Shown here piece after piece: positions 32,848-49,985 of a DNA stretch of 64,000 nucleotides. The stretch is from positions 14,666 to 78,665 of the forward strand of contig JANPFV010000015.1 in NCBI GenBank assembly GCA_031423615.1, given 5' to 3'. Each line of letters opens with the position of its first letter. The first letter of the stretch is position 1. The notes below the pieces were generated by a model. The model saw nothing but the letters and a program-made list of their open reading frames with translations. It did not search any database and was not told where the DNA came from. The DNA is from Candidatus Omnitrophota bacterium (GTDB lineage Bacteria > Omnitrophota > Gorgyraeia > Zapsychrales > JANLHA01). Position numbers and translations under genes: made by a program.

Positions 32848-35040
32848 ATGTTCTTACATTTTCTAAAATTCTTTATCCCGATTGGACTTTGGCTTTATCT
32901 TTTCCGTGACCTGTTGAGCGGGGCCGCGCCTCTGCAAACCGAGCCCTTTGCCGATCTCGCCATTTTAAATTTTTATCTCACTCATTTGCGATTGGGAATT
33001 GTCCCGTTATGGAATCCCTTTCTCTTTTGGGGTTTCCCGTGGGAAATTCTTTTGACCTATGTGGGTTTTGCCAATCCCATCTGGCTTCTGACGGTTTTTC
33101 TTAATGCATTCGGAATAAAGTTCTATTTTGCCTTCGTTTATACGATTGTGGCTTATTTTCTCATCGGGCAAGCCGGATTTTACTTTCTGGCCCACGCCCT
33201 TTTTAAAGAAACCAAAACGGCCTACATTGCCTTTTTATTTTTATTATTTTCTTCGGTGGGCCTGGTGAGCTTAGTCCAGCTCAATATGCTTTTGATTTTT
33301 GTGCCGGCGGTGTGGTTTTTTTATTTTGCGCTGCGATGGACCCGGCGTTGGGACATCACGTCCTGGCTAGGAATTGTTTTTACCCTGATGCTGGTGAACC
33401 AGGCGTATTTGCCTTTTTACTTTGTGACTTTAGCCGGATTGGCGGCCCTGTTTTGGGGAATTGTTTATGCTCGGGCGGCCTTAAATATTTTCATTGCGGC
33501 TTTGCAATTCGGTAAAAGAAATATTTTTATTGTCATTTTAAGTTTGATAGTTTTGGGTGTGACCTTTATTCCTTCCTATTTCGCGTACCGGAATACGGCG
33601 ACCCACGAAGTGGTACTGCCGTGGCGCCAAAAGGGAATGGATGTGTGGACCAAGGGATCGCATTTTGGGGATTATGATAAAACCACAGAGGGAAGCTTGA
33701 GCAGCCGCATGTCGATCGACGATCTTTATTCAAATGTCGACCAACTGCTTTATGCGAATGATGGATTTGTTTATCTTTCGGGATTTGCTTTCTTGATTCT
33801 GCTTCTGGGAGCGTTTAACCGGCTTAACCGGCGGGTGACATTTTTGGGATTACTTTTTTTAAGTCTCTTCTTTCTTAGTCTGGGGAACGCCACACCGGTG
33901 CACAGATTTTTTTATGAACATGTTTTTTATTTTAAGATGATGCGCAATATGCATTTCTTTCTTCCTTTCTTTTTGGCGGTGTTGGTGTTGTTGACGGCTG
34001 AACAAGCCCGAGGCTTGCTACAGCTTCCGGAGCAAATGAATCGACGACAAAAGTGGCTCGCCTGCGGGATCATCCTGCTCATTCATGGCGGATGCTGGAT
34101 ATTTCTCTCCAGCAAAAAGAATGTCAGCCCCGTGGCTTATGAAACGATCAGTTTGAGTTTTATTTTTGGGATCTTCACCGTATGGTCGGTTTTAAAAAAG
34201 AATGGATATGGACAAGCCTTATTTTTATTCGGCTGTATTGTTTTTCATCCGATTTATGTGCTCAATGGACACAATCAATTAGCCGCAGAAAAGCCGGCTC
34301 CAACGATTACAAAAGGAATGCAGGCCAGAGTCAGCGTTCCGCAATTTTCGTTTACGCGTAATTCTCCGGTGCTGCCGCAAAAGGCAACCGGGGAAGATAA
34401 CTTGAACCCTTTTTATTTTGACTATTTTTTCATGACCGATGTGCTTCCTCATTCCCGGACGTGGCCGTTGTGTTCGCCGGCATTCTGGTCCTATTATCTT
34501 TCTCGAAACGTCCCCGAAAATATTTTGCAGGACTATGCCCGCTATAAATTTGTTGTTTATGATTCCGTGAAGGTGGTCCCGGATGATAAGGAAAATATTT
34601 TGCCACTGATCAAGGGCTTGGAAGGAAAAATCAATATGGCTTTTGTTGCCGAAGACCGGCCGGAAACAAAAAAGGAGCTGGACGCTTTCATAAAGAATCG
34701 GGTCGTATCATCGCAGGCTATATTCATCAGCGCGGCTTCCCCGGAATTGGCCGTAAAACATTTCACTCCCAACGTTGTCCGCTTGACGACAAATTTTAAG
34801 AATGAAAAGTTTTTGGTTTATAACGACAGCTATATGAAAGCCTGGCAGGCGAAGTGTGACGGAGTACGGATTCCTCTCTATCGCGCGAATGGGGCATTCA
34901 AAGGCGTGATTTTAGCGGCGGGACATCATGAAATAGAGTTTGCGTATCGTCCTCTGGGATGGAGCAGGCTGGCAGGGATTATTTTGATTTTGTATTGGAG
35001 TATGTTTGTTATTTTATTAATCAGATTGCGAAAATCATGA
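32848..35040 (+). CDS. large polytopic membrane protein (730 aa) with a C-terminal extracytoplasmic domain; GT-C/YfhO-like candidate
   Basis: N-terminal region of about 450 aa with many TM segments, then a soluble region of about 280 aa; its position right after a DPM1-like GT2 matches the lipid-linked sugar synthase plus GT-C pairing. Confidence 0.5.
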   Translation: MFLHFLKFFIPIGLWLYLFRDLLSGAAPLQTEPFADLAILNFYLTHLRLGIVPLWNPFLFWGFPWEILLTYVGFANPIWLLTVFLNAFGIKFYFAFVYTIVAYFLIGQAGFYFLAHALFKETKTAYIAFLFLLFSSVGLVSLVQLNMLLIFVPAVWFFYFALRWTRRWDITSWLGIVFTLMLVNQAYLPFYFVTLAGLAALFWGIVYARAALNIFIAALQFGKRNIFIVILSLIVLGVTFIPSYFAYRNTATHEVVLPWRQKGMDVWTKGSHFGDYDKTTEGSLSSRMSIDDLYSNVDQLLYANDGFVYLSGFAFLILLLGAFNRLNRRVTFLGLLFLSLFFLSLGNATPVHRFFYEHVFYFKMMRNMHFFLPFFLAVLVLLTAEQARGLLQLPEQMNRRQKWLACGIILLIHGGCWIFLSSKKNVSPVAYETISLSFIFGIFTVWSVLKKNGYGQALFLFGCIVFHPIYVLNGHNQLAAEKPAPTITKGMQARVSVPQFSFTRNSPVLPQKATGEDNLNPFYFDYFFMTDVLPHSRTWPLCSPAFWSYYLSRNVPENILQDYARYKFVVYDSVKVVPDDKENILPLIKGLEGKINMAFVAEDRPETKKELDAFIKNRVVSSQAIFISAASPELAVKHFTPNVVRLTTNFKNEKFLVYNDSYMKAWQAKCDGVRIPLYRANGAFKGVILAAGHHEIEFAYRPLGWSRLAGIILILYWSMFVILLIRLRKS

Positions 35041-36026
35041 ATAGAAAAAAATCTAGCCTGTGGATCAAGCTCGTTGAGTGGACCCTGGGCCGGTGTCTGT
35101 TTTTGTACATGCTCTTGATCGGGGCGAGTCTCGTTTTAATCGACCGTCATACGGTGTTGAACAACCGGATGAATTTTTTGCTCCAGAATGAAGCCAGCGT
35201 CAAGGCTTTTTCCGTCGGGAGAGTACCGATCGACTATAGTGCTTTTAAAATGGCGGTCCGTTATTATACTGAGTTGCGAAGATTTGCTCCTAGAGATGGG
35301 CTACTCTGTGGCAATCAAGGTTTTTGCTATTACCATTTAGGCCAGAAGCAGCAGGCCTTGGAAATGTATCAAAAGGCCCTTATGCTGGAGCCTACTTGCG
35401 GCCCTTTGCAGCTGGATTTAGCGACGATGTTTTTTGAAATAGGGTGGCAGGAAAAGGCCGCGGTCATTTGGAGTAATTATTTAGAGAATAAAGAATCTAT
35501 AAAAAGATATTGCGAGGCTTTAAGAGGCCAGTTGCGGCTCATAAAAAGGGAGGATGTTCTTTTTCTTATCGACGATATGGAAAAAAGTTTTGTCGTCGAT
35601 GAGCGAGAGACGTATATCAAATTGAGCGAAGCGTATTTTTTACTGCAAAAATATTCGCTGGCTGCCGAAACCGCACTGGCGGGTCTGAAGCGTTTTCCTC
35701 AAAACCGCTGGTTGAATTTTGTCGCCGGGTTTTCACGCTACAAAGAAAGCCGTTGGACAGAAGCGGCCGGCTATTTTAGTGAAGCGATCAAAAGTGAGCC
35801 GCACGACATCAATTCTTATTATTATCGTTCTTTGTGCATGCAAAGTTTAGGAGAACCGCAAAAATTTCTGCAAGATCTTAGCCACGTCAAACAATTGCAC
35901 GCCCGCGGAGTTAGCCCTTTCCCTTTTCCTAAAGGGGATGCGGCTTTGCACTTTGATACTGAAGTCTTATTTATTCGGTATCATTTGCAAGATGCAGGAA
36001 AGCTGGAGCGTAACCGTTCGCAATAA
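35037..36026 (+). CDS. TPR-repeat protein with N-terminal TM anchor
   Basis: start at MNRKKSSLWIKL; N-terminal hydrophobic segment CLFLYMLLIGASLVLI; repeated A/Y/L spacing (MYQKALMLEP, YFSEAIKSEP). Confidence 0.6.
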   Translation: MNRKKSSLWIKLVEWTLGRCLFLYMLLIGASLVLIDRHTVLNNRMNFLLQNEASVKAFSVGRVPIDYSAFKMAVRYYTELRRFAPRDGLLCGNQGFCYYHLGQKQQALEMYQKALMLEPTCGPLQLDLATMFFEIGWQEKAAVIWSNYLENKESIKRYCEALRGQLRLIKREDVLFLIDDMEKSFVVDERETYIKLSEAYFLLQKYSLAAETALAGLKRFPQNRWLNFVAGFSRYKESRWTEAAGYFSEAIKSEPHDINSYYYRSLCMQSLGEPQKFLQDLSHVKQLHARGVSPFPFPKGDAALHFDTEVLFIRYHLQDAGKLERNRSQ

Positions 36027-36161
36027 GCTTTTCTGAAATGAGCGATAATATTTTCGCGGACCGCAGGCCAGCGCGATGCAATATATGCCTAGCTATTTGA
36101 CAGGGAATTACTTATCTGTTAAATTTTTTACAGTAACAATTATTACAGCCCATAGGAGATT

Positions 36162-39100
36162 ATGAGCGAAAAATTATTTAGGAGACTAGAAAGATTTCGC
36201 CTACGCAACACATTATCCATATTAGCTTTTTGTAAACAATTAGACACTTCCCCCGTTAATTATCACCGCTGGAAAAAAGCCCGCCACATCGTTGGCCCTT
36301 ACAAAAAAATTCTTGAGGATTTCTTAGATCGCAACGACAACCCTCAAGGCTTTCCACAATCTTCGTATAAAGTCGCGTCCAATATCGCCGTTATCGGTAT
36401 TGCTTGCTATTACCCCGGCGCTAACAATTTGAAAGATTTGTGGGGAAATATCTTAGCCCGGCGGGTTCAATTCCGTCGGATGTTGGACCAAAGACTTCCT
36501 TTGAGTCAATATTACGACGCAGATATTAAGTCCCCCGAAAAAACTTACCTCACAAAAGCCGCTTTCATAGAGAATTTCAAATTTGATTGGGATAGACTCC
36601 GTATTCCCAGAAAAACCGTTGAATCAACCGATATAGCCCACTGGCTGGCTTTAGACACAGCGTTAAAAACGTTTGAAGATGCTGGCTATAAACTCCGCGA
36701 TATTCCTCTCCAAAACACGGGAGTTATCGTTGGCAATACTTTGACTGGTGAACAAACACGATCACAATCTTTGCGTTTGCGCTGGCCATATGTTAATAAA
36801 GTTTTGAAAACGACAATGACTCATTTATCCATGGGTCAAGAGAACCAAAACCGACTTGCCCATGAGATGGAAAAGATTTATAAGTCGGCTTTTTATCCTA
36901 TTACAGAAGATTCTTTGTCAGGCGGTCTAGCCAATACGATTGCTGGCCGGATTTGTAATTATTTAAATTTAAAAGGTGGTGGCTACATTGTTGATGGCGC
37001 TTGTTCGTCGTCCTTGTTGTCTGTTGCGACGGCTGCGGATGCTTTAAAAATGGGAAATATGGATTTGGCTTTAGCTGGAGGAGTTGATGTCAGTCTTGAT
37101 CCATTCGAGTTAGTTGGTTTTGCCAAGGCAGGCGCGTTGGCAAAAGATCAGATGCGTGTTTATGATCAGCATGCCAATGGATTTCTGCCGGGGGAAGGGT
37201 GCGGGTTTGTTCTTTTAAAAAGATTGGAAGATGCGATTAAAGACAAGAATTATATTTATGCAGTAATTAAAGGTTGGGGAATTTCCTCTGATGGCAAAGG
37301 TGGGATTATGGAGCCCTCTTCAAGCGGACAATCATTTGCGATTGAACGGGCTTACAAAGATTTAGAATATAAAATATCCGATGTTGATTTTGTTGAAGGG
37401 CATGGCACGGGGACCGCGAAAGGCGATAGAGTCGAACTCGAAGGAATTGCAACAGCCATTGCCAAAGCGGCACAAAAAAATAATTCGCGCCTCTGTGGTG
37501 TTACATCGTTTAAGTCCATCGTTGGTCACACAAAAGCGGCCGCTGGTGTAGGTGGACTTATTAAAGCCATTTGTGCTGTTAATCAGCGCATTTTACCTCC
37601 TACCGCCAATTGTAGTGAACCCAATGATGTTTTTCAGGATAAAGCAAAAGGTTTATATCCGATTATGCAGGGAAGCATTTTGCTGCAAGGCACAAAAGCA
37701 AAGGCGGGCATTTCTTCGGCGGGATTCGGCGGAATTAATTGTCATATCACGGTTGAATCTAAAGATCTTCCAAAACAAACGTTAAAATCAGAAATAGAAG
37801 AACGCGCTTTATTCGTTAGCAATCAAAAGACGGAAGTTTTTGTTTTTGCTGCGAGGACGACGATTCATTTACAAAAAGTTATTCAAAAGTTTAAGGAAGA
37901 CTTAAGAAACATTAGTATTGCGGAAATGGCCGATTTGGCGGCTTTGTTGAATAAGAAAGCAAGAAATCGCCTGCCTATTAAAGCCTCTATTGTTGCAGAC
38001 TCCCCCGAGAATTTATATGAAGCTTTGAAGTCCCTTGAGAAAGAGATAACTGCAACTCCTGTGGAGGAAGGGCAAATTTATAGAATACAAGCCAATGATA
38101 GCAATACGCATATCATTTTGAGCCATACCGTCAAAACAAAACGTATAGGATTTATATATCCGGGACAGGGATCACAGCGCCTGAATATGACCAGGACTTT
38201 AGTCGAGCGTTATAAATGGGCGAGAGATCTTTTGAATTTATCAAAATTACCGCTTTATGATTTGATTTATAAATCAACAGATAAATTCTCAACCAAAGAA
38301 GATCAACAGGAATTCGAGAAGCAAATAGCGGATACCAAAATTACTCAGCCAGCGATTATTGCCAGTTCATTAATTTGGACAGAATTTCTATCTCGTCTTG
38401 GGATCGATCCTGAATGCGTGGCTGGCCATAGCTTGGGAGAATTGATTGCCTTTTATAGAGCAGGAGCTTTTAGTAAGGAGACATTAATAAAGTTTGCTGA
38501 ATTGCGAGGAAGATTGATGGCTTCCCGGGGTCGCTTTTCGGGAAGTATGGTCAGTTTATTTTGTTCAAAAAACCAAGCCGAAGAATTGATCGGTAAAGTT
38601 ACTGGCAACATTGTTATCGCCAATATCAACAGCCCTACCCAAGTCATTGTTTCTGGTGGTCATAAAGAAATCGAAAGGACAGTAGTATTGGCAGAGAAGG
38701 AAGGAATATCGTTATACCGATTGAATGTCTCCAATGCTTTCCATTCCTCGTTTATGAAAGAGGCTTCAGAAAAAATTCAATCAAGCAAAATATTACCAGA
38801 CAGTTTTAAAGTTGGGGACATTAAAGTTTACTCGGGCATGAGTGCGACTGCGCTGAGCAGTAAGGTTAATTTAAAGGAATATTTTTCAAAGCAAGTCATT
38901 TCACCGGTGAGCTTTGTCGATACGATTGAGGCAATATCGAAAAACTGTGACGTTTTAATCGAAGTCGGGCCGGGGCGGGTGGCAACGGATTTGATAAAGG
39001 CTATTAATAAACAGCAAGCCCCCCTATGTTTGCCTATTGAATCAACCTCACAAAATGATAAGGATTTGAACATTGTTTTAGCAGAATTATTTGTCCGTAA

Positions 39101-42100
39101 CATTGTGATCAAATGGGAAGAATTGTACACAAATAGGTTGATTAAAACGTTTGTCCCGGTTTCGCGAAAGACATTCATCAGGAATCAATGTGAGCATCCT
39201 TTAAAAATTGGTAGTCAAGTTCTTAGGACAGAGATTTCGTCAAATATTGAACTTAAACAAGAAGTTGAAGAAATTAAGCCGCAATCTAGGCCTGTTGCAC
39301 ACGGTCAAGATAACATTGCCGACTTGTTGGTGGACTTGATACAGGCGATGACGGGTTTTGATCGAGGATCAATTTCTTTAAAATCAAGACTTTTAGATGA
39401 TTTAAATTTGGATTCAATTAAAGCGGCTGAATTAATTGGTCAGGCGGCAAAAGTTCTTGGGATCGCCGGACAATTAGATCCTTCGCGGTTTTCCAATCAT
39501 ACTGTGGAACAAATCCGGGATCATTTATATAAATTAGTGGGTGAGACTAAGAGTAGCCAGATTGAGGAGACTACAGCGAGTCTTTTAAAACGTTATCATG
39601 ACAAAAATTGGGTTAGAAATTTTGTTGTTGATTTTAAACAAGAGGAAATAATCAGCCGTAATGTTAATCAATTAAAGAATTTAAAGAGTATCGTCATTCT
39701 GTCTGGTAAAGGTGAAGACGCATTAGTAAATTCGATTAAAAAAGAATTTAGTAATTCCAAAGCCAAATTTCAAAAGATTTATTTTGGCGACAGTCAGCAA
39801 AAATTAGAGAAGTTTGGCACAATAGACTGTCTGATTGTTGTTTTGCCTAAAGCTCCTCAGAATAAAGATTTTGATAAGAATTCTTTCCAAGAAATAGTCG
39901 AACGGCTCCATCAATCTATTAAATTAGCTAATTCAAAGCAAGTCCACAAGGATTCTTTTGTTGTTCTAGTACAGTTTAAAAATATTACATCCAGCTGTTC
40001 AAAATCTATAGCCTCGACACTTTATCTTGAAAGACCGGATTTAAAGGTTCGCATTCTTGATTTCGATGCATCCGCTTCCGAAAAACAAATCTCCCCAAGA
40101 ATTATCGACGAACTTCAAACATACGAGCGTTTTAATACCGTCGAGTATGACCTTAAATTTAGAAGAAGTGTTGGCTATTATCAAAATTCAGAACCGGCAA
40201 CATACAAGAAAAGAAACAGCTCTTGGACTTCCAAAGATGTTGTTTTGGTGACAGGCGGGGCAAAAGGTGTCACCGCGCAATGCGCTTTAGAGTTTGCCCG
40301 CAGTACTAAGGCGCGAATGGTTTTGGTCGGTCGCTCGCTGCTCCCTGGGAATCAGAAAGATGAAAACAATGAGATATTGCAGACCCTGCGTCAATTCGAC
40401 AAAGAAGGCCTAAAGGCTTATTACTATCCATGCGATGTAACTAATGAGAAACAGGTTAGCAAAACGATTCAGGAGATTGAAAAAAAACTTGGCAAGATCA
40501 CTGGATTTGTCCATGGATCTGGTTTAAATAGTCTAAAGCGATTGCAACAAGTTGCTTCTGAGGATGCTTTTGAGGAATCCCTTCCAAAAGTCATGGGTGC
40601 CGTCAATGTTTGTAAGGCCATGTCGCAACCGCCAAAGTTAATTGCTGGGATTACCTCTATTATTGGTTTGACTGGAATGGAAGGAAGCGGTTGGTATGGA
40701 CTGGCCAATGAGGTTTTAAATCTTTATCTTCATCAGTTTAAAAATCAAAATCCACAAACTGATGTTGTAACGATTGCTTACAGCGTTTGGGACGAAATCG
40801 GTATGGGGGCTAAATTAGGTAGTATTGACCGCCTTGCCGAAAAGGGCATTGGCGCTATTCCAGTCGCAGAAGGAGTAAAGCGATTTAAACAATTGATCGA
40901 AAACGATCCGGGCACTCAACAGGTCATTGTAGCAGGCAGACTCGCGGGAATAGATACTTGGAAATCGGCCACTTTAAAAATTAATTATTTTAGATTTATT
41001 GAAAAAGTCGAGTATATTCTGCCCGAGGTAGAACTCATTGCTCGAGTGCACCTTAATATCAAGGATGATGTTTATTTATTAGATCACAACTGGAAAGGTT
41101 CTTTATTGTTTCCGTTTGTATTTGGCTTTGAAGCTATGGCGCAGGGGGTCGCTTATGTCTTAGGGATTGAGAAATTCGATTACATTAAAGCTAAGAATAT
41201 TAATCTTGAACGGCCGATCTCTGTGCCGCAGGAATCAGGAACTACGATAGAGATTCATGCGCAAGTTTTAGAACGCAAGAAAAATGACGATAGCAGAGAA
41301 GTTAAAGTGGAAATTTATTCACAAGAGACAGGCTACAAAGAACCGCATTTTTCAGCAGTTTTTGAGGTTGATAAAAAGCCAAAGACTTTTGTAAAACCAG
41401 AGCATTCTTTGATGAAAAAAGCAAAAAAAGTCATTGATCTAGATATGCAGACCGATATTTATGGACCTATTTTATTCCAAGGAAAATTGTTCCAATGCAT
41501 CGAAAAAATTCACCAACTTCATTACGATAAGGACGATAAAAAAGGACAATGTGTTTTCACGGCCAGCTATAACAAATCAACCCGTATTTTTTTAAAGGAA
41601 AACAAAAAATTTAAAGGCGATTTCTTAATCGGCGACCCCTTTTTTATTGACTCAGTTTTGCAATCGATGCAACTTATTATTCCGCAGGATTTATCGTTAC
41701 CCAGGAAGATAAGATCAATAGAATTAACTCCCTTGAGCAGGAAATTTCACTCTGAAATGATATCCCAGTCTTACATAAAAAAGGTAAATAGTGAATATTA
41801 TAGTGGCGATGCCGAAGTTGCTCTGGGCGGTTTTGTTTTGAAGATTAAGAATTGCCATCTCATAATACTGGAGACCTTGAGCAATAACCTCCCTACTAAT
41901 GATCTTGTAAATCCAGCCTTAAGAGATCAAAAGATAATTCAGACTAGAGTAGACGAGTTTAGTAAAGAATTAAACTTTATTTCTCCCATTATTTGTTGTT
42001 TATATGATGAGCGATTGAAGAATACCAATAAGGATTTGCGGCGTAAAATTGAAGCACCTCTTGTTAAGGTTGCGGTAGAGAAATTATTTGAGAGAAGTAA

Positions 42101-43592
42101 GAAGCCTGTCAAAAGTTTTACACTTAGTTGGCTTAACTCAGGAAAACCAGTTATTGGAGGTAAAAATGTTCAAGACATTGGAGTATCTATTTCACATTAT
42201 GGGGCGTTTCTTATGGTGATCGTTGGTTATGGAGAGCAAGGGTGTGATGTAGAAAATATACAAGAAAGAAACATGGGCCAATGGTTGGGCTTACTGGGAA
42301 AAAACAAATATAAACTTCTAGAACAGATGATTGCTCAAGGTAATAATTTAAATGTAGCAGGCACCTCTATATGGGGTGCAACTGAAGCAATAAAGAAATT
42401 TCATGGTAAATCCGAGAATTCAGTACAGTTTGTTAATGTGAACAGCAAGTATTCCACATTTAAATCGGCAGATTTGAATGAAAATAAACAAGTGATAACT
42501 TTTGTGATTCGACAAAAGATAATTATTTCTTTAATTGTTAATTTTGTAATTTCAAAAGAAATTGGCAGGGAAGCAATAAGGCTCGGATATAACGCTAATG
42601 TTTTTAGGATAGATCTTCAGTTAACTGGATCGCAAGAACAGCCGGTTTATATCCAAAGATTTCCTATAACATTTAAGAATGTAAAAGACTTAGGTAAAAG
42701 AGTTTATTTTGCTGATTATTTTGACTGGATTGGTGAAGTAAGAGAATATGGTTTATATCCAATCAAACACGAGTTGATTAGTCTATTCGAAACCGGCAAA
42801 TGGGGAATGGCAACAAATCATGTTAAGTTGAGAATATTAGGTGCGCTGAGGATAGATGATATTGTCGAGGCGAGGTTATGGCTGAATCGTGTTTCTGGAG
42901 AAAAGAACTCTGTATTAGATTTAATGTTTGAATGGTTTAGAGTAACATCCAATGACGAATATGAAAAAGTAGCGCTTAGCGAGCAACGTGTTTCATGGAT
43001 TCAGATAACTGGCCATGGAGAAGGGAAGATTGAGTCTTTCCCAAAATCTATAAATGAATTTATTGACATGTTGGGACCGCGAAAAAAGCATGTAGATAGG
43101 GATGAGAATCAAGCGAGGTATAGAGAATTAAATCTGGGAGAACAAAGATATCTTTTAGAAAGCACGAAGAATCTTCTTTTAACAGAAGAGATTTTCTCAA
43201 CGAGCCTTGAAGAATCGAATCTGGTAGGCAATATTTATTTTTCAAATTATGCTAAATGGCTAGGAAAAACCAGAGATAATTACTTCAGGGATTTGTTACC
43301 GAGTTATTATTTAGGCAAAGGAGAAAAGGGAGAATTTATTTGTTTAGATTGTGAAATATTTCATTTAATGGAGGCTATGCCTTTCGATAAGATAAGAGTC
43401 AAAATGTTTTTAAAGAAAGCTTTTCAGTATGGACTCGATTTTTATTTCGAGTTTTTAAAATATAAGGATGGCCAGGAGTCGAAACGATTGGCTTATGGCA
43501 CTCATAGGGTAGTATTTGGTAAAAGCGATAAAGGTAAAATTGTTCGGTATGATTTGCCAGTAGAAATTTTAAAAGTAGTAAATAATACTTAA
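36162..43592 (+). CDS. iterative type I polyketide synthase with enediyne-PKSE-like architecture (KS-AT-ACP-KR-DH-PPTase) and a C-terminal tandem hotdog thioesterase-like extension (2476 aa)
   Basis: KS active site VDGACSSSL with HGTGT and GH motifs; AT GHSLGE; ACP LNLDSIKAAEL; KR VVLVTGGAKGVTAQCA; DH HNWKGSLLFP (HxxxGxxxxP); PPTase VSISHYG, GCDVENI, WGATEAIKK; two C-terminal 4HBT-like segments; GGAG RBS 6 nt upstream of the ATG. Confidence 0.85.
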   Translation: MSEKLFRRLERFRLRNTLSILAFCKQLDTSPVNYHRWKKARHIVGPYKKILEDFLDRNDNPQGFPQSSYKVASNIAVIGIACYYPGANNLKDLWGNILARRVQFRRMLDQRLPLSQYYDADIKSPEKTYLTKAAFIENFKFDWDRLRIPRKTVESTDIAHWLALDTALKTFEDAGYKLRDIPLQNTGVIVGNTLTGEQTRSQSLRLRWPYVNKVLKTTMTHLSMGQENQNRLAHEMEKIYKSAFYPITEDSLSGGLANTIAGRICNYLNLKGGGYIVDGACSSSLLSVATAADALKMGNMDLALAGGVDVSLDPFELVGFAKAGALAKDQMRVYDQHANGFLPGEGCGFVLLKRLEDAIKDKNYIYAVIKGWGISSDGKGGIMEPSSSGQSFAIERAYKDLEYKISDVDFVEGHGTGTAKGDRVELEGIATAIAKAAQKNNSRLCGVTSFKSIVGHTKAAAGVGGLIKAICAVNQRILPPTANCSEPNDVFQDKAKGLYPIMQGSILLQGTKAKAGISSAGFGGINCHITVESKDLPKQTLKSEIEERALFVSNQKTEVFVFAARTTIHLQKVIQKFKEDLRNISIAEMADLAALLNKKARNRLPIKASIVADSPENLYEALKSLEKEITATPVEEGQIYRIQANDSNTHIILSHTVKTKRIGFIYPGQGSQRLNMTRTLVERYKWARDLLNLSKLPLYDLIYKSTDKFSTKEDQQEFEKQIADTKITQPAIIASSLIWTEFLSRLGIDPECVAGHSLGELIAFYRAGAFSKETLIKFAELRGRLMASRGRFSGSMVSLFCSKNQAEELIGKVTGNIVIANINSPTQVIVSGGHKEIERTVVLAEKEGISLYRLNVSNAFHSSFMKEASEKIQSSKILPDSFKVGDIKVYSGMSATALSSKVNLKEYFSKQVISPVSFVDTIEAISKNCDVLIEVGPGRVATDLIKAINKQQAPLCLPIESTSQNDKDLNIVLAELFVRNIVIKWEELYTNRLIKTFVPVSRKTFIRNQCEHPLKIGSQVLRTEISSNIELKQEVEEIKPQSRPVAHGQDNIADLLVDLIQAMTGFDRGSISLKSRLLDDLNLDSIKAAELIGQAAKVLGIAGQLDPSRFSNHTVEQIRDHLYKLVGETKSSQIEETTASLLKRYHDKNWVRNFVVDFKQEEIISRNVNQLKNLKSIVILSGKGEDALVNSIKKEFSNSKAKFQKIYFGDSQQKLEKFGTIDCLIVVLPKAPQNKDFDKNSFQEIVERLHQSIKLANSKQVHKDSFVVLVQFKNITSSCSKSIASTLYLERPDLKVRILDFDASASEKQISPRIIDELQTYERFNTVEYDLKFRRSVGYYQNSEPATYKKRNSSWTSKDVVLVTGGAKGVTAQCALEFARSTKARMVLVGRSLLPGNQKDENNEILQTLRQFDKEGLKAYYYPCDVTNEKQVSKTIQEIEKKLGKITGFVHGSGLNSLKRLQQVASEDAFEESLPKVMGAVNVCKAMSQPPKLIAGITSIIGLTGMEGSGWYGLANEVLNLYLHQFKNQNPQTDVVTIAYSVWDEIGMGAKLGSIDRLAEKGIGAIPVAEGVKRFKQLIENDPGTQQVIVAGRLAGIDTWKSATLKINYFRFIEKVEYILPEVELIARVHLNIKDDVYLLDHNWKGSLLFPFVFGFEAMAQGVAYVLGIEKFDYIKAKNINLERPISVPQESGTTIEIHAQVLERKKNDDSREVKVEIYSQETGYKEPHFSAVFEVDKKPKTFVKPEHSLMKKAKKVIDLDMQTDIYGPILFQGKLFQCIEKIHQLHYDKDDKKGQCVFTASYNKSTRIFLKENKKFKGDFLIGDPFFIDSVLQSMQLIIPQDLSLPRKIRSIELTPLSRKFHSEMISQSYIKKVNSEYYSGDAEVALGGFVLKIKNCHLIILETLSNNLPTNDLVNPALRDQKIIQTRVDEFSKELNFISPIICCLYDERLKNTNKDLRRKIEAPLVKVAVEKLFERSKKPVKSFTLSWLNSGKPVIGGKNVQDIGVSISHYGAFLMVIVGYGEQGCDVENIQERNMGQWLGLLGKNKYKLLEQMIAQGNNLNVAGTSIWGATEAIKKFHGKSENSVQFVNVNSKYSTFKSADLNENKQVITFVIRQKIIISLIVNFVISKEIGREAIRLGYNANVFRIDLQLTGSQEQPVYIQRFPITFKNVKDLGKRVYFADYFDWIGEVREYGLYPIKHELISLFETGKWGMATNHVKLRILGALRIDDIVEARLWLNRVSGEKNSVLDLMFEWFRVTSNDEYEKVALSEQRVSWIQITGHGEGKIESFPKSINEFIDMLGPRKKHVDRDENQARYRELNLGEQRYLLESTKNLLLTEEIFSTSLEESNLVGNIYFSNYAKWLGKTRDNYFRDLLPSYYLGKGEKGEFICLDCEIFHLMEAMPFDKIRVKMFLKKAFQYGLDFYFEFLKYKDGQESKRLAYGTHRVVFGKSDKGKIVRYDLPVEILKVVNNT

Positions 43593-43615
43593 GTTTTTAG
43601 GGGATTTATCTAAGC

Positions 43616-45796
43616 ATGAACTCAGTGGCACATTTACAGATTGTTTTATTTTCAGTTTCCGGGTTGATTGTTGGCCTGACGAGTATAATTTTAGCGTTAA
43701 TTTTAATTCTTTATGGAAAATCTAAACTTCATAGAATTTTTGCATTATTTAATTTTGCTGTTGCGTGGTGGGGTATTGCTGCATTCTTTATTGGTAAGTC
43801 AACCGATGCTGGTCAAACATTACTGCTTTTTAAAATAGCTCATATAGGAATTATTTTTATTGCAGTATTTTTTTATCATTTTTCCTGCATTTTTGCGGGT
43901 ATTAATCGAAAATTCTTAATTTCTTTCGCATATTATCAAGGCATCTTTTTTAGTCTACTGGCAATCTTTGATTTGGTCCCTTTTATTTCTAAAGTGGAAA
44001 AGATCAAAGACTCTCTTTTTTACCTACAATCTTCAGGTGTTTATCCTATTTTCTTCTCTCTATGGATTTTCTTGGTTTTTGTTGCTTTAGTTGAGACATT
44101 TCTTCAGTTTCGAATAGAAAAGAATGCTATTAAAAGAAATCAAGAACTATATCTTTTATTTTGGTTTTGTGTAGGGTTTTCCGGTGGTATTAGTAACTTC
44201 TTGCCTGCTTTTCAAATAAATATTATTCCTTTCGGAAATTTTACTATTCCAATTTATTGTGGCGTTGCCTCATACGCTATTTTAAAGCATAGCCTTTTGG
44301 ATATAAAAATTGTTGTTACTCGATTTGGTGTTTTCTTTTTGGTTTATTTTTTTGTCTTGGGTATCCCATTTGGTTTAGAAGCATGGGGACAGGAATGGTT
44401 AAAAGGGATATTGGGAGCGTTTGGAAGTTGGATTCCTATGCTGGTCCTTTTGGGGTTTGCTACTATAGGCCCATTTATTTATCTTTATCTCCAACGGAAA
44501 GCCGAAGAAAATATTCTGCAAGTCGAACAGGGGACTCAGGATTCCCTGAAGCAGGCTTCCTATGGCATGAACACCATCCATCATCTCGACAAATTATTAA
44601 ATCTTATCGTTAATGTTGTCGTTAGAACACTGCGCTTAGATTCGGCAAAGATTTTTTTGTTAGACCGTGATGCACAGAGCTATATTTTAAAAGCCTCGGA
44701 AGGTCAGCAAGAAAAAGTATTGCTGGTGGGGGACCCGTTAATTTTGGAGTTAAAGAGAAAGCAATATCCCTTAGTCTATGATGAAATTAAAATGCTGACC
44801 GATGGAGGAGACAAAACTTTATTAACTGTTGAATCGCAAATGCGAGATTTATCAATCAGTGTCATCGTTCCCATCGTGCTTAACAATAGTTTATTGGGCT
44901 TTTTGACTTTAGGGGAGCGCAAATCAAAAGCCATGTATACAAGAGGTCTATTAAATACATTATCAATTCTTGGGAATCAGGCTGGCCTTGCTATCGATCG
45001 ATGCAATTATATCGACGCTGAAGCAAAACGCCTCGAAGCGGAAGGACTAAAAGAAAGAATGGTCTCTTTAGACCATATGGCCAGTTCAATGGCTCATGAA
45101 ATCGACAATCCGATGCATATTATTCGCTCCTCTTTGTCTTTCCTCAAAGATTTTGTTTTAAAAGATGCTCGCGTTTCCGTTTTGCCCCAGGAAATAAAGA
45201 ATGATTTCCAGGAAGCCATTGTGCGCAGCCTTCACGCCGGAGATAGAGTGTCGGGTATGATCAAAGCCATTTTGGATTATTCGCGGATGGGAACAGGAAA
45301 GTTGGAGTCGGTGCGGATTGGTGAAGCATGGGACGGCTTCCTCCAACTTATCCAGCCGCAGATTAGAGAAGAGAAAGTAATATTTATAAAAGAGATTGAG
45401 AATGATTTGCCGCCCGTCTTGGGGGATCGTGTTCAGTTGGAAGAAATTTTTATGAATTTTGTCCGGAATTCGCTTCACGCGATCAAACGGAATGCAGACA
45501 AGAAAATAACCCTTAAGATTTTTAAAAAAAGCAATGACATCGTCCGCATTGAATGTTCCGATAATGGTTATGGCATCCCAAAGGAAATCATTAATGATAT
45601 TTTTCTTTCTTCCATGACCACGAAGGGCTCAAGCGAAGGCACAGGGCTGGGTCTCTATCGGGTAAGAAAAATTGTCGATCTTTTTCGGGGAAAAGTATGG
45701 GCCGAATCGGAAGGCCAGGAAAAAGGTGCTACTTTCATCGTGGAATTACCCGTGTATGAGAATAGTAAAAGTGATAATGACGGAGAAGCCGTTTAA
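43616..45796 (+). CDS. sensor histidine kinase with N-terminal multi-TM sensor region, GAF-like domain, HisKA and HATPase_c
   Basis: about 8 hydrophobic segments in the first 300 aa; H-box MAHEIDNPMHII; N-box FVRNSLHAI; G-boxes DNGYGIP and GTGLGL. Confidence 0.85.
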   Translation: MNSVAHLQIVLFSVSGLIVGLTSIILALILILYGKSKLHRIFALFNFAVAWWGIAAFFIGKSTDAGQTLLLFKIAHIGIIFIAVFFYHFSCIFAGINRKFLISFAYYQGIFFSLLAIFDLVPFISKVEKIKDSLFYLQSSGVYPIFFSLWIFLVFVALVETFLQFRIEKNAIKRNQELYLLFWFCVGFSGGISNFLPAFQINIIPFGNFTIPIYCGVASYAILKHSLLDIKIVVTRFGVFFLVYFFVLGIPFGLEAWGQEWLKGILGAFGSWIPMLVLLGFATIGPFIYLYLQRKAEENILQVEQGTQDSLKQASYGMNTIHHLDKLLNLIVNVVVRTLRLDSAKIFLLDRDAQSYILKASEGQQEKVLLVGDPLILELKRKQYPLVYDEIKMLTDGGDKTLLTVESQMRDLSISVIVPIVLNNSLLGFLTLGERKSKAMYTRGLLNTLSILGNQAGLAIDRCNYIDAEAKRLEAEGLKERMVSLDHMASSMAHEIDNPMHIIRSSLSFLKDFVLKDARVSVLPQEIKNDFQEAIVRSLHAGDRVSGMIKAILDYSRMGTGKLESVRIGEAWDGFLQLIQPQIREEKVIFIKEIENDLPPVLGDRVQLEEIFMNFVRNSLHAIKRNADKKITLKIFKKSNDIVRIECSDNGYGIPKEIINDIFLSSMTTKGSSEGTGLGLYRVRKIVDLFRGKVWAESEGQEKGATFIVELPVYENSKSDNDGEAV

Positions 45797-45808
45797 AAGG
45801 AGCAAATT

Positions 45809-46213
45809 ATGGATCGGTCCAAAATAAAGATTTTGGTCGTCGATGATGAAGAGGATATTACATTTTTTACCGCCAAGATATTGCAGTACGATGGGTTTCA
45901 GGTTTATAAAGCCTTAGATGGAGCTTCGGCATTGGCAGTCTTTGAAAAGGAATGTCCGCATATTTGTCTCTTGGATGTTCACTTGGGATATTCCAAAATA
46001 GATGGAATGGAAGTTTTAGAAAAAATAAGGAAATCGGGCAGCGACACGGAATGTATTATGATTACTCGGATCACAGATCAAGAAACGATGGCAAAAGCAA
46101 AGACCCTAGGCGTAAAGGAATATTTATTAAAGCCATTGGCCATGGAGGATTGGTTAAAGAAGGTGCATGCTGTCGCAGAAAATATCGACGAGAGGAGTGC
46201 GCCCCATGGCTAA
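45809..46213 (+). CDS. single-domain response regulator (REC only)
   Basis: ILVVDDEEDI...CLLDVHLG...MITRITDQ...LLKP. Confidence 0.85.
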   Translation: MDRSKIKILVVDDEEDITFFTAKILQYDGFQVYKALDGASALAVFEKECPHICLLDVHLGYSKIDGMEVLEKIRKSGSDTECIMITRITDQETMAKAKTLGVKEYLLKPLAMEDWLKKVHAVAENIDERSAPHG

Positions 46214-46709
46214 TCCTCTTAACAATGAGCAGGCTTTGTATGACCAAATCAAGAATGAGAAAATCACCGTTCCATTGGTCATTTGGGATTTGATGTATCG
46301 CTATCTGGGTGATGAAATATCCGCGATGACGCAAATTACTTTGTCTTATTGGCGGTGCAATGAGCCGATCCCCGTCTCTGATGCCGGCAAGCTGCTTGAC
46401 CATTCCAAGAAGATCAACACCGTGATCAGAAAAATTATTTATCATGACGAGATTAAAGATGAAAATGAAAAAATTGGGGAATTAAGAAATATTAACACCA
46501 AACTTCACCCGATTCTTAATGAACTGTTCTTTCATTATATCGGTAATGATCTCTATGGAATTGACTTGATTGTCGCGTCCTATATTGATGAATCAGATCC
46601 GCAGCCGGTTCCGGTAGAAATGGCCCGTAAGATTTTAAATAAAACTGCCAGCATGAAATTGTTTATGGATAGATTAAGGGAAGCGACCAATCAGGAAGTA
46701 AGAATTTAG
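46206..46709 (+). CDS. hypothetical protein (167 aa) between two receiver genes
   Basis: start at the ATG at 46206 (MANPLNNEQ), overlapping the previous gene by 8 nt; no motif recognised. Confidence 0.45.
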   Translation: MANPLNNEQALYDQIKNEKITVPLVIWDLMYRYLGDEISAMTQITLSYWRCNEPIPVSDAGKLLDHSKKINTVIRKIIYHDEIKDENEKIGELRNINTKLHPILNELFFHYIGNDLYGIDLIVASYIDESDPQPVPVEMARKILNKTASMKLFMDRLREATNQEVRI

Positions 46710-46718
46710 GAGACAGGG

Positions 46719-47489
46719 ATGATTAAGATATTGATTGTCGACGACGAACCGGAAATTTGCGAATCGATTAAAAAACCTTTTGCTTACCTGGGGTTTACGG
46801 TGTTTACGGCGACCACAGCCAAGAAAGCCTTAAACATTTTTGAGAAGAATAAACCCAAGATTATTTTCTTGGATATTATTATGCCGGATAGGGATGGTTT
46901 GGAATTGCTTAAGAAGTTTAAAGAGCTGGATCCGAAAGTCATTGTCATCATGGTCACGGCTAAAGGCGGCGAGGAAACCCGTAAGAAAGCGATTGCGCTC
47001 GGCGCCGATGATTTTATGACCAAGGGCTTTAGTTTTGAGGATTTGCGGGATATTTCCCGGAAAAAAATTGAGATGCTTCTGGGAAAAGCCGGTCATATGC
47101 AAAAACCGCGCATTCTAATTGTCGACGATGAAGATCAGGCCCGCGATAATTTACGAAATTTTATAACTCCATTGTATGAATGCGATATTGAAGAAGCGCA
47201 GGATGGCGAATCGGCGATTGAAAAGGTCCAAAAGATGCAGCCGGATGTTGTTTTATTAGATGTGAGAATGCCCGGGGTGGATGGAATTAGGGCCATTGAA
47301 GAAATCAAGGAGATCAGTCCGGATTCGCGTATTATTGTGATCAGCGGTCACGGGACGCCCGATGTTGTTTCAAAAGCCATGGCTTTGGGAGCGTTTGATT
47401 ATTTGGTCAAGCCCATTGACTTTGAACTGTTTCCGGAAAGATTTGAACCGGCCCTGATTAGTATGGGAAAACTTATCAAAAAGACTTAG
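46719..47489 (+). CDS. tandem-receiver response regulator (REC-REC, no output domain)
   Basis: first REC ILIVDDEPEI...FLDIIMPDRDG...MVTAKG...DFMTKG; second REC ILIVDDEDQA...LLDVRMPGVDG...VISGHG...DYLVKP. Confidence 0.85.
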   Translation: MIKILIVDDEPEICESIKKPFAYLGFTVFTATTAKKALNIFEKNKPKIIFLDIIMPDRDGLELLKKFKELDPKVIVIMVTAKGGEETRKKAIALGADDFMTKGFSFEDLRDISRKKIEMLLGKAGHMQKPRILIVDDEDQARDNLRNFITPLYECDIEEAQDGESAIEKVQKMQPDVVLLDVRMPGVDGIRAIEEIKEISPDSRIIVISGHGTPDVVSKAMALGAFDYLVKPIDFELFPERFEPALISMGKLIKKT

Positions 47490-47537
47490 TCCCAATTTTT
47501 GTCAGAGGGTTTAATTTATAGAAAATTGGGATTACCT

Positions 47538-47577
47538 CGATAGACCGTTGGTCTATCGACTGTTCGGGCGGATTTTT
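47538..47577. terminator. candidate bidirectional terminator between convergent genes
   Basis: perfect 9-bp inverted repeat cgatagacc-gtt-ggtctatcg, followed 13 nt later by a T6 run. Confidence 0.35.
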
Positions 47578-47595
47578 TCTATTGAAAAATCCGGG

Positions 47596-48171: not shown

Positions 48172-48244
48172 CTTTTTCCCTTCACTACGTTTATACAATA
48201 ACCAAGCATTTATGTCAATCATAATTAGCACAAAAGTTCTCAAT

Positions 48245-48272
48245 TTTGATATATTTTATAAAATATATCAAA
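48245..48272. promoter_or_regulatory. perfect 28-bp palindrome TTTGATATATTTTATAAAATATATCAAA, candidate operator
   Basis: reverse-complement identity checked by hand; sits in an AT-rich divergent promoter region about 75 nt upstream of the XRE-cupin gene. Confidence 0.5.
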
Positions 48273-48323
48273 TATAAATTAGCATTAATAATTTAATTGT
48301 ATGCAATGTAATAACTTATGAGA

Positions 48324-48374: not shown

Positions 48375-48409
48375 CATGTTATCTTTGAGATAAGGGAGGC
48401 GAGAATAAT

Positions 48410-48583: not shown

Positions 48584-48617
48584 TAATGCAAAGCACATTT
48601 TGAGAGGAGGTCCACGC

Positions 48618-48845: not shown

Positions 48846-48969
48846 AAATTATTTCGTCTGTACAGACAAAACTCATTTCTCAAATCCCCCCTTTCCTATA
48901 AAATGAGTTGTAATAAATAAGTTTTGACATTTTTTAAGCGCTTTGTTTCTGTGGTATACTGTCAACGAT

Positions 48970-49608
48970 ATGGTCAAGAATCATCCTAAAATATTGGTGG
49001 TCGACGACGAGCCCGACGTGACAGCCTATTTTCAGAAGTTCTTTGGAAGAAAAGGATTCTTTGTCAACACGACGGCCAGCGGTAAAGATGCTTTAGGCAT
49101 GATCAAAGCATCCAAACCGGACCTGGTTTTTCTGGATTTAACTTTGGCGGAGATGACCGGACGGCAAGTGCTGCAAGCCTTGCGAAAATTTGATCGAGAA
49201 ACCAAGGTTATCGTGATTACCGGCCATACTCTGAATTCTGAAGCGGAGAGCGAAGAATTCAGGGCCTTAGGCATCAGTGCTTATTTAAATAAACCGCTGA
49301 GTTTGGATGAGGTTGATAAGATGGCCAAAATGATTTTGGGGGATAATTATCCGTTAGCGCAATTTGATCAAAATATTCCGACCCAGGAAATAAAACAAGC
49401 TTTATCGACGGCAACTCACAAATTGCGCAATCTCCTCGGCAATATTAAAGGGGAGTGTCAAGTTTATCTGATCCATAAAAAGTCGGGTAAGTACAAAAAC
49501 AAATCAAAAGATGATGTGCAGAAAATGTCTGATGTTATTATCGAAGATGTCGTGGTTACGATTAATAAGGTGATGGAAGTTCTTAATGGTGTTAAAAGCG
49601 AGAAATAG
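48970..49608 (+). CDS. response regulator receiver domain with C-terminal extension of about 90 aa (possible Hpt-like segment)
   Basis: REC ILVVDDEPDV...FLDLTLAEMTG...VITGH...AYLNKP; C-terminal STATHKLRNLLGNIKGE resembles an HxxKG Hpt motif (inference). Confidence 0.7.
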   Translation: MVKNHPKILVVDDEPDVTAYFQKFFGRKGFFVNTTASGKDALGMIKASKPDLVFLDLTLAEMTGRQVLQALRKFDRETKVIVITGHTLNSEAESEEFRALGISAYLNKPLSLDEVDKMAKMILGDNYPLAQFDQNIPTQEIKQALSTATHKLRNLLGNIKGECQVYLIHKKSGKYKNKSKDDVQKMSDVIIEDVVVTINKVMEVLNGVKSEK

Positions 49609-49610
49609 CA

Positions 49611-49985
49611 ATGCCAAAACTTTTAGTTGTCGATGATGAAATAGACATCGTTGAGGTCACAAAACGATTTTTTAAAAAGCGTGGCCTCGACGTTTTTACG
49701 GCGAGCGACGGGGAAGAAGCTCTCCGGGTGATTAAAGAGGAAAATCCAGATTTGGTTTTGCTGGATTTCAATCTGCCGATTTTAAGCGGGTTAGAAATTT
49801 TAAAAAAGTTAAGAAATGAACTGAAATTGAATACGAAAGTCATTATGGTCACAGGTTTTGAAACGGAAATGGTCATCAATGAAACCCAAGGCTTAGCTCT
49901 GGAGGGATGTATTCATAAGCCTCTGGATTTGGAAAAACTGGAAGAAGTTGTTATGTCCGCGTTAAGCAAGCCTAGCGATAAATGA
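49611..49985 (+). CDS. single-domain response regulator (REC only)
   Basis: LLVVDDEIDI...LLDFNLPILSG...MVTGF...CIHKP. Confidence 0.85.
   Translation: MPKLLVVDDEIDIVEVTKRFFKKRGLDVFTASDGEEALRVIKEENPDLVLLDFNLPILSGLEILKKLRNELKLNTKVIMVTGFETEMVINETQGLALEGCIHKPLDLEKLEEVVMSALSKPSDK

Follow-up and report, generated by a model that had tools for sequence, protein, structure and literature searches.

The window analysed here is a stretch of 64,000 nucleotides of contig JANPFV010000015.1 from Candidatus Omnitrophota bacterium (assembly GCA_031423615.1). At positions 36162..43592 of its forward strand, it encodes a polyketide synthase (PKS) of 2476 amino acids (aa) in an intact open reading frame (ORF). 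This gene probably specifies an iterative, highly reducing type I PKS of a family that resembles the RerA/RerB (RerAB) system of Rhodococcus erythropolis, is sister to the enediyne PKSs (PKSEs) and carries all of its functions on one chain. The domains follow one another in the order ketosynthase (KS), acyltransferase (AT), acyl carrier protein (ACP), ketoreductase (KR) and dehydratase (DH), then an Sfp-type phosphopantetheinyl transferase (PPTase) and two hotdog domains, with every catalytic motif intact. An earlier interpretation made from the letters of the DNA (the sequence-only reading) had described this ORF, and all of the motifs that it quoted are present; its order KS-AT-ACP-KR-DH-PPTase is borne out by Pfam, by a colinear alignment to the enediyne synthase SgcE and by a profile match of the PPTase to Sfp. 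As that reading also stated, a glycan operon lies upstream of the gene and a membrane histidine kinase downstream (Pfam).

Domain organization of the synthase

The synthase comprises the following features:

36162..43592, + strand: whole PKS ORF, 2476 aa, intact; iterative type I PKS (polyene synthase), RerAB-like / PKSE-like
36162..36377, + strand: N-terminal extension of ~72 aa, helix-turn-helix (HTH)-like, kept in the Omnitrophota-type clade (alignment)
36378..37613, + strand: KS domain, aa 73-484 (Pfam PF00109 and PF02801, E 3e-55 and 2e-31), with C281, H414 and H456
38151..39002, + strand: AT domain, aa 664-947 (Pfam PF00698, E 8e-29), with GHSLGE (S757) and NAFHS
39324..39527, + strand: single ACP domain, aa 1055-1122 (Pfam PF00550, E 9e-5, weak), with LDDLNLDSIK (S1085)
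40242..40793, + strand: KR domain, aa 1361-1544 (Pfam PF08659, E 2e-22), with TGGAKGVT and Y1512
41040..41870, + strand: DH domain, aa 1627-1903 (PF21089, PKS_DH_N, and PF14765, PS-DH, both weak), with H1642 in HxxxGxxxxP and D1830xxxQ1834
41988..42554, + strand: Sfp-type PPTase domain, with GKP, SxSH, QGCD2029vE2031 and W2071xxxE2075xxK (profile, SgcE and RerB alignments, model)
42609..43076, + strand: hotdog 1 (RerB 'domain Y'), degenerate and 4HBT-like (model, fold matches, internal repeat)
43143..43589, + strand: hotdog 2, aa 2328-2476, enediyne-type (SgcE10/CalE7/DynE7-like) acyl-ACP thioesterase, with R2371 (RerB R415)

The signature motifs are spread in order along the chain, with those of the KS at residues 278-284 (DGACSSS) and 412-418 (EGHGTGT), the AT at 755-760 (GHSLGE), the ACP at 1081-1087 (LNLDSIK), the KR at 1364-1371 (TGGAKGVT) and the DH at 1642-1651 (HNWKGSLLFP). 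They are followed by those of the PPTase at 2008-2012 (VSISH), 2026-2031 (QGCDVE) and 2071-2079 (WGATEAIKK) and of the hotdogs at 2182-2197 and 2353-2375. Among 56 aligned homologues, the KS triad C281/H414/H456, AT S757, ACP S1085, KR Y1512, DH H1642 and D1830xxxQ, and the PPTase motifs SxSH, QGCD and WxxxE..K are invariant or >90% conserved. The two domains with weak Pfam matches are also recognizable by alignment: the ACP, whose motif is >90% conserved across the family, aligns to the ACP of SgcE and to the second ACP of RerA (ACP2), while the DH aligns to that of SgcE with an E value of 4e-27 and has catalytic residues that are >90% conserved. The enzyme is thus apparently complete and active, judging from its residues, and the AT is predicted to be malonyl-specific by the established GHS[LV]G / xAFH rule.

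An integrated Sfp-type PPTase is supported by a profile of aa 1940-2135 built from 24 family sequences, for which the best match in the PDB is Sfp (1QR0, E 3.8e-6), followed by AcpS proteins. The match spans Sfp residues 49-160 and takes in the GKP, SxSH, GxDxE and WxxKExxK motifs; all of the group II PPTase motifs (GKP, (S/T)xSH, G(I/V)D(I/V)E and WxxKE(S/A)xxK) are present in the window PKS. The same region aligns to residues 1806-1877 of SgcE, within its PPTase (E 8e-8), and weakly matches the NCBIfam AcpT model (E 1.6e-4). An AlphaFold model of aa 1940-2476, computed from a 57-sequence alignment, has a mean predicted local distance difference test score (pLDDT) of 91.4 and is confident in the PPTase region, which it folds into two alpha/beta subdomains.

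The remainder of the C-terminus forms a tandem hotdog, which the sequence-only reading had taken to be a fused thioesterase (TE) of the enediyne E10/E7 type; the AlphaFold model, matches to double-hotdog folds, an internal repeat and sequence matches in the PDB all agree with it. The C-terminal 330 residues of the model superpose on double-hotdog acyl-ACP TEs, including FatA/FatB, bacterial TE14 and ACOT7/12 (Foldseek E ~5e-14 to 1e-11; target-normalised TM 0.6-0.76 over 290-335 columns). By sequence, the best PDB matches are enediyne TEs, namely SgcE10 (4I4J, E 2.9e-13) and the others (DynE7, CalE7; 2XFL, E 7e-11; 2W3X, E 2e-10). This similarity, including the N...GN.Y...W...R segment, is confined to the second hotdog, which Pfam identifies as 4HBT_2 (aa 2353-2461, E 2e-9). 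Hotdog 1 (aa ~2150-2305) can be aligned with hotdog 2 of homologous proteins at E values down to 1e-8, indicating that the two arose by internal duplication; it keeps an invariant Arg-Glu pair (R255/E256) and lacks the N...GN motif. The plant FatA/FatB and bacterial TE14 enzymes, as well as ACOT7/12 and LnmK, have the same fold with tandem hotdogs as a pseudo-dimer. However, the window C-terminus is only 7-12% identical to the FatA/FatB and TE14-type TEs and has no match to Pfam Acyl-ACP_TE, whereas its catalytic half belongs by sequence to the 4HBT_2 / enediyne-TE group. The double hotdog is probably a duplication independent of the FatA/FatB-type TEs.

The N-terminal extension has the consensus ...LSILxLCKxLxxSxVNYHRWKKAGKITGPYKKI... 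in the Omnitrophota-type clade. Two homologues (P0034 and P0038) have Pfam matches to PF12728/PF00376 (HTH_17/MerR-type) where the extension of the window PKS aligns, while a sub-region scan of the window extension itself gave no significant Pfam match. Extensions of this kind are found in ~40 of ~100 homologues; a DNA-binding-like domain is unusual on a PKS.

Relationship to RerAB and proposed mechanism

The closest characterized relative of the window PKS is the RerAB system of R. erythropolis PR4, in which RerA has the domains KS-AT-ACP-ACP-KR-DH and RerB comprises a PPTase, an 'unknown domain Y' and a TE (Chem Commun 2024, PMC11563203). RerA and RerB together yield C15-C22 polyenes, from hepta- to nonaene, both in E. 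coli and in vitro. Colour is lost on inactivation of the KS or PPTase, whereas inactivation of the TE gives orange cell pellets that possibly reflect enzyme-bound species, according to the authors. An artificial RerA-RerB fusion outperforms the separate proteins, and D48/E50 of RerB were designated the active binding residues of the PPTase (PMC11563203).

BLASTP comparison with the RerA and RerB sequences (taken from the supplement of PMC11563203) shows homology throughout, with matching domains in matching order. RerA matches aa 75-1008 of the window protein (KS-AT) at 43.6% identity and aa 1049-1972 (ACP to DH) at 31.8%, while RerB matches aa 1985-2452 (PPTase-Y-TE) at 28% identity (E 7e-63). 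The window protein keeps the residues that the RerAB authors singled out, namely KS C281, ACP S1085, PPTase D2029/E2031 and TE R2371. The systems differ in that RerA and RerB are two proteins, split within the N-terminal part of the PPTase region, whereas the window PKS is a single polypeptide with one ACP instead of two and an additional HTH-like N-terminal extension. Their contexts differ likewise, with RerAB encoded in a 39-gene actinobacterial cluster and the window PKS beside a kinase cassette with a seven-transmembrane (7TM) sensor. 'Domain Y' was left without assignment in the RerAB paper. On the structural model described above it is a degenerate hotdog, predicted to pair with the TE as a FatA-like double hotdog, which would explain it as one half of the releasing domain.

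A phylogeny of KS domains (neighbour-joining, NJ; 46 KS domains, 466 columns, 200 bootstraps) shows where the family belongs. Four PKSEs form their own clade, and the window KS, its family members and RerA form a clade sister to it, with RerA nested among the family members; PKSEs and the window family are joined apart from PfaA-type and modular KSs. All three groupings have 100% bootstrap support. Pairwise comparisons give a similar picture. The window protein and SgcE are colinear over aa 73-2079 of the former (BLASTP, 30% identity, 874 bits). The KS-AT structure of DynE8 was found neither among the 60 best PDB sequence matches of the whole protein nor, at E values up to 10, among those of the KS N-terminus. 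A tblastn search of 72,556 plasmids with the KS found three tiers of matches: a family member at 59% identity, canonical PKSEs (told by an adjoining UnbU/SgcE5 gene) at 47-50% and, after a sharp drop, the remaining KSs at 36% or below. The PKSE-like character that the sequence-only reading saw in the protein is borne out, with one correction: the KS is far nearer to PKSEs than to the synthases of polyunsaturated fatty acids (PUFA) or heterocyst glycolipids (HglE), but it lies in the sister clade with RerA, outside the PKSE clade, and the window protein is not a true PKSE.

Given the colinear RerA and RerB matches and the nesting of RerA within its KS clade, the window protein appears to be a natural RerA+RerB fusion with one ACP. 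The novelty of the enzyme itself had been over-rated, since the sister clade already holds the biochemically characterized RerA/RerB. What is new is the natural fusion variant, the assignment of 'domain Y' and a conserved pairing with a sensor kinase.

By homology to the biochemistry of RerAB and PKSEs, the window PKS is predicted to be a polyene synthase that primes itself and depends on its TE for release, building the chain from malonyl-CoA and NADPH. The internal PPTase (D2029/E2031) would turn the single ACP (S1085) into its holo form, and the AT (S757, malonyl-type motifs) would load malonyl units. The KS (C281), KR and DH would then iterate without an enoyl reductase (ER), giving a fully conjugated chain, polyenoyl or beta-hydroxy/keto-polyenoyl, that stays bound to the ACP. 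The C-terminal double hotdog, a pseudo-dimer of the degenerate 'Y' half and the SgcE10/CalE7-type catalytic half, would hydrolyse the chain off, probably followed by decarboxylation and dehydration to hydrocarbon polyenes or polyenones. The sequence-only reading had likewise proposed a synthase that primes itself and releases its own polyene chain outside any enediyne pathway, and this central reading is supported by the profile and fold evidence, the KS identities and the KS tree.

Some observations count against this account of the enzyme. Pfam, its ACPS model included, sees neither the PPTase nor hotdog 1 in the window protein, and both were assigned from the profile, pairwise alignments and fold comparison. 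The TE arginine is not invariant across the family, being absent from two homologous loci (L005 and L002). A native-host product has been established for no family member, RerAB included, and neither chain length nor final structure can be read from the sequence.

The kinase cassette and the possible role of the product

The genes and sites next to the PKS are as follows (related loci are designated by L numbers):

34959-36026: tetratricopeptide repeat (TPR) protein, upstream of the PKS
36097..36125, + strand: promoter-like site within the 135 nt that precede the PKS start (TTGACA and TAAATT spaced by 17 nt, plus a TG extension)
43616..45796, + strand: histidine kinase with HisKA_7TM sensor, GAF, HisKA and HATPase domains (Pfam; synteny), 23 nt past the PKS stop
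45809..46213, + strand: single-domain response regulator (Pfam), syntenic in L097, L098, L100, L104 and L008 at 67-72% identity
46167..46709, + strand: 180-aa ORF conserved in the cassette, at the same position in 7 related loci at 41-72% identity
46719..47489, + strand: double-REC protein (Pfam), syntenic in L097, L100, L008 and L104 at 69-75% identity
47596..48243, - strand: HTH-cupin transcription-factor-like protein (Pfam), kept in L097, L008, L104, L100 and 6 family loci
48943..49985, + strand: two further response regulators (48943-49608 and 49611-49985; Pfam)

The cassette thus runs from the kinase through a response regulator, the 180-aa ORF (no Pfam match) and the double-REC gene to the HTH-cupin gene on the opposite strand and another response regulator. 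In the five nearest loci, most of it or the whole is present, to the extent that the contigs cover the region, at 51-75% identity. In most other loci, the orthologue of the regulator at 49611-49985 comes after the kinase (48-60% identical in L003, L005, L015, L113 and others). Among loci with enough downstream sequence, the kinase, accompanied by REC proteins, lies directly 3' of the PKS in 12 of 12 of the Omnitrophota type and in all five Desulfobacterota loci with a flavoprotein-fused PKS, with gaps of -4 to +24 nt in these 17. HD-GYP proteins follow the kinase and response regulator in L003, L005 and L007. In one Omnitrophota relative (L004 15411-18380), the kinase has 989 aa and two tandem 7TM sensor regions.

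The pairing was also approached from the kinase. A metagenome scan with an alignment of its sensor (7TM and GAF) gave 80 best loci, 70 of which include at least 400 nt of upstream sequence. A PKSE-like C-terminus is encoded directly upstream of the kinase in 13 of these 70 loci, a stand-alone KS gene ends at most 225 nt upstream in 11, and KS genes occur elsewhere within 6 kb in a further 15. Three of the loci (L173, 1-10911; L108, 1-10937; L105, 1-8638) contain type II sets of KR, KS, chain-length-factor (CLF)-like KS and ACP genes with no ER (Pfam), to which a FabA-like DH is added in L173 and L108. Downstream of the type II sets come the same kinase and response regulator, followed in turn by a double-REC protein and an HTH-cupin protein, both of the types found in the window (L173), or an HD-GYP protein (L108). 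By gene content, such sets (KS/CLF, ACP, FabA/Z-type DH, KR) are aryl-polyene-like; they are dissociated enzymes whose organization is not homologous to that of the PKS, and none is present in the window. Like the PKS, however, they precede close relatives of the window kinase and lack an ER, and an unsaturated chain is accordingly expected from both. When the sensor regions are placed in an NJ tree, kinases that go with type I synthases and those that go with type II synthases are intermingled; one mixed clade (L012/L103/L105) is supported at 92% bootstrap and another at 75%.

It is possible, though short of probable, that the PKS forms one unit with the HisKA_7TM-GAF kinase, the REC proteins and the HTH-cupin protein, and that its unsaturated lipid product is the ligand of the kinase or a membrane cofactor for it. 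The broader proposal, that the PKS and the genes downstream constitute a lipid-signalling module not described before, found in Omnitrophota, Desulfobacterota and related uncultured lineages, is a more doubtful one. In such a module, the kinase would sense a polyunsaturated or polyene acyl product, or hold it as a membrane cofactor, and pass the signal on to HD-GYP, double-REC or stand-alone REC proteins, while the synthase slot could be filled by either a type I megasynthase or a type II KS/CLF/ACP/DH/KR set. The logic would be similar to that of the diffusible signal factor (DSF) system RpfF/RpfC/RpfG, in which an enzyme frees an unsaturated acyl product from ACP and a multi-pass sensor kinase acts through REC proteins. 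The likeness is a functional analogy, given that no window protein is homologous to RpfF or RpfC (Pfam detects no crotonase of the RpfF type in the window) and the HD-GYP protein RpfG has counterparts only in relatives of the window locus. The coupling of the kinase even to type II synthases provides a concrete hypothesis for polyene function and for HisKA_7TM sensing, for which a literature search found no publication giving a ligand. If the module were real, it would provide the first ligand class for HisKA_7TM and a physiological role for non-enediyne PKSE-like synthases.

Several points weigh against a signalling role, the evidence for which consists of gene neighbourhood. No KS gene was present in the DNA available for 31 of the 70 kinase loci. 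The baseline frequency of a KS gene near a kinase is an assumed one, a random 12-kb stretch being expected to hold a KS gene in ~1-2% of cases. The window has no HD-GYP gene (Pfam). Finally, the kinase is absent beside the PKS in cyanobacteria, Thermoactinomycetaceae and other groups, where halogenases or flavoproteins are found instead, and the link is thus limited to some clades.

As an alternative, the product may be structural or protective (a membrane polyene pigment, an antioxidant or the lipid anchor of a glycan), with the kinase cassette merely regulating the PKS or being co-regulated with it. This is unlikely, though not without support. Polyenes are known pigments and antioxidants (PMC11563203). 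The 22 kb upstream of the PKS form a sugar-modification/glycan operon with sugar-modifying enzymes, a glycosyltransferase of family 2 (GT2), a YfhO-like protein and the TPR protein, and in three Omnitrophota relatives a FadL/Toluene_X outer-membrane channel, which fits transport of a hydrophobic product, is encoded directly 5' of the PKS (L003 8570-9865; L004 6410-7720; L005 5768-7093). However, the glycan operon does not adjoin the PKS in relatives, which have other genes upstream, and the link to it suggested in the sequence-only reading was dropped in favour of the conserved downstream partner, the 7TM histidine kinase cassette. The 135-nt gap with its promoter-like site also separates the operon from the PKS; this site is a consensus match alone, and such sites are no more numerous in the region than expected from shuffled sequence. 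The guanine-cytosine (GC) fraction from PKS to response regulators is 0.34-0.42 compared with 0.44-0.49 in the glycan operon. Moreover, the response regulators have no DNA-binding output, which makes simple transcriptional control of the PKS by them unlikely, and the retention of the same kinase cassette beside non-homologous synthases points to a tie with the product.

A further alternative, less likely again, is a diffusible bioactive metabolite (toxin or antibiotic), which unlinked enzymes might modify further and which would target hosts or competitors, with the kinase sensing an unrelated trigger cue. Enediyne relatives are cytotoxins, and in other clades of the family the synthase belongs to a typical natural-product cluster that also encodes halogenases, flavoproteins, alpha/beta hydrolases and ABC/MacB exporters. 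However, neither the window nor its closest relatives have tailoring or export genes with the PKS, and the kinase-synthase pairing outlasts a swap of the synthase.

Apart from its bearing on the glycan operon, base composition sets the whole PKS-kinase-response regulator stretch apart, with a GC fraction of 0.34-0.42 over 36-50 kb and 0.44-0.50 in the flanks; positions 36000-50000 may be a horizontally acquired island. A TPR-repeat protein is also encoded upstream of the synthase in the Omnitrophota relative L003 (3460-4545) and in the type II locus L105 (3-665). A hidden Markov model of the three Omnitrophota FadL/Toluene_X proteins found no match among the window ORFs. An amine-oxidase-like ORF of the glycan operon (27378-28790) was considered as an orthologue of PKS-associated flavoproteins and rejected, as only the dinucleotide-binding motif agrees.

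Enediyne and fatty acid synthases, and the distribution of the family

It is highly improbable that the window PKS is a genuine enediyne synthase, making an enediyne core with an E3/E4/E5 cassette encoded elsewhere in the genome. Enediyne PKSEs (SgcE/CalE8/DynE8) do share its KS-AT-ACP-KR-DH-PPTase order, are colinear with it over ~2000 residues and have KSs that are 47-50% identical; their TEs (SgcE10, DynE7, CalE7) are the nearest to the TE half of the window protein, and the chemistry expected of both yields ACP-bound conjugated polyenes. Many homologues are in addition labelled 'enediyne polyketide synthase' by the Joint Genome Institute (JGI). However, the enediyne TE is a discrete protein acting in trans, whereas the window protein carries its TE in cis, as one half of a duplicated hotdog pair. 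Canonical PKSE genes keep UnbU/SgcE5 directly adjoining, whereas the window lacks an E2-E5 cassette and comes from a non-actinobacterial host. With SgcE, SgcE10 and SgcE2-E5 sequences taken from the C-1027 cluster on plasmid SGLP1, tblastn and phmmer found no credible homologue of SgcE2, E3, E4 or E5 within the window, in agreement with the sequence-only reading, which had recognized no E3/E4/E5 partners; the sole sub-threshold match (SgcE4, E 4.8e-4) falls within a gene for an alpha-amylase, 15 kb from the PKS. Among >80 family loci with up to 10 kb of flank, an SgcE2-E5 homologue was found in L065 alone, a Xenococcaceae cyanobacterium metagenome-assembled genome in which a DUF1702 gene (9223-10266; SgcE2/E3-like, E 6e-48) lies directly 3' of the PKS, a point in favour of the enediyne reading. 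The position of the KS in a separate, fully supported clade with RerA, which is not tied to enediynes, argues further against an enediyne product, as does the prevalence of uncultured groundwater or sediment lineages among the hosts.

A PUFA-synthase or heterocyst-glycolipid (PfaA/HglE) type enzyme making a methylene-interrupted or saturated chain can be dismissed as even more improbable: PKSE and PfaA KSs are related, the iterative type I KS-AT-ACP-KR core is common to both and TIGR02813 (PfaA) partially matches the window protein over KS-AT, but the score of 531.9 bits is below the curated cutoff of 1010.1 and similar to that of SgcE (456 bits, also below cutoff), whereas true PfaA-type proteins score 1499 (Nostoc) to 2530 bits (Persicobacter PfaA). 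The KS is 35-36% identical to those of verified PfaA-type proteins, compared with 47-50% for PKSEs, and is separated from them in the tree at 100% bootstrap. In place of tandem ACPs, the window PKS has one PP-binding domain, with a PKS-type rather than FabA-type DH, no ER and an integrated PPTase and TE; no PfaB (AT), PfaC (KS-CLF-FabA DH) or PfaD (ER) partner was detected among the Pfam-scanned ORFs, which cover mainly 13.8-63.5 kb of the window.

The family is spread across many phyla. Searched against 1.84 billion representatives clustered at 50% identity, the PPTase-Y-TE region has 689 matches at E <=1e-3 and 263 at E <=1e-30, and it occurs in 83 of 185,579 GTDB species representatives. 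The hosts include Omnitrophota, Ca. Troglogloeales, Planctomycetota, Desulfobacterota, Methylococcales, Bdellovibrionales and Thermoactinomycetaceae, as well as many cyanobacteria and a few actinobacteria. 'Enediyne-type' KSs have been reported from these phyla without explanation in a metagenomic survey, which found them abundant outside actinomycetes, notably in sediments, and left their role as an open question (PMC10308959). Enzymes of the window type belong to the RerAB-like sister family of polyene synthases rather than to enediyne pathways. A literature search found no prior description of the fused PKS family.

Four architectures are represented, the commonest of which is a single chain of ~2430-2735 aa. 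The single polypeptide noted by the sequence-only reading is real but not rare, the C-terminus being fused in 118 of the 120 best homologues; the whole RerAB-like system is thus commonly fused in nature, which makes it attractive for obtaining conjugated polyenes from one gene. The others are split after the AT (many cyanobacteria), split as in RerB, or extended to ~3200 aa by a C-terminal amine-oxidase/phytoene-desaturase-like flavoprotein. The PKS-flavoprotein fusion was observed in Desulfobacterota and Ca. Methanoperedens matches (L019 11621-13150; L066; L016; L067 11582-13243), and a flavoprotein of the same kind is encoded immediately 3' of the PKS in other lineages. Stand-alone double hotdogs (Y and TE) of ~340-380 aa with no PPTase (P0141, P0144, P0167, P0168 and others) constitute a further split form of the module, though some may be gene fragments.

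In cyanobacteria, the PKS occurs together with one to three genes for flavin-dependent halogenases in L002 (21119-26794) and 24 other loci, from hosts that include Microcystis, Okeania, Nostoc, Gloeothece and Aetokthonos, which suggests that the products of this clade are halogenated. Cyanobacterial loci also encode a DUF4347-RTX protein and an alpha/beta hydrolase beside the PKS. Lastly, a stretch of the Sinorhizobium meliloti T073 plasmid pSymA (L089; NZ_CP021805.1 242869-262275) contains an unannotated 1919-aa ORF of PKSE size, with a KS 43% identical to that of the window. It is preceded by ORFs of 358, 638 and 465 aa and followed by one of 171 aa at the site of a TE match, and the whole resembles a cassette of the enediyne type, carried by a symbiosis plasmid of a rhizobium.

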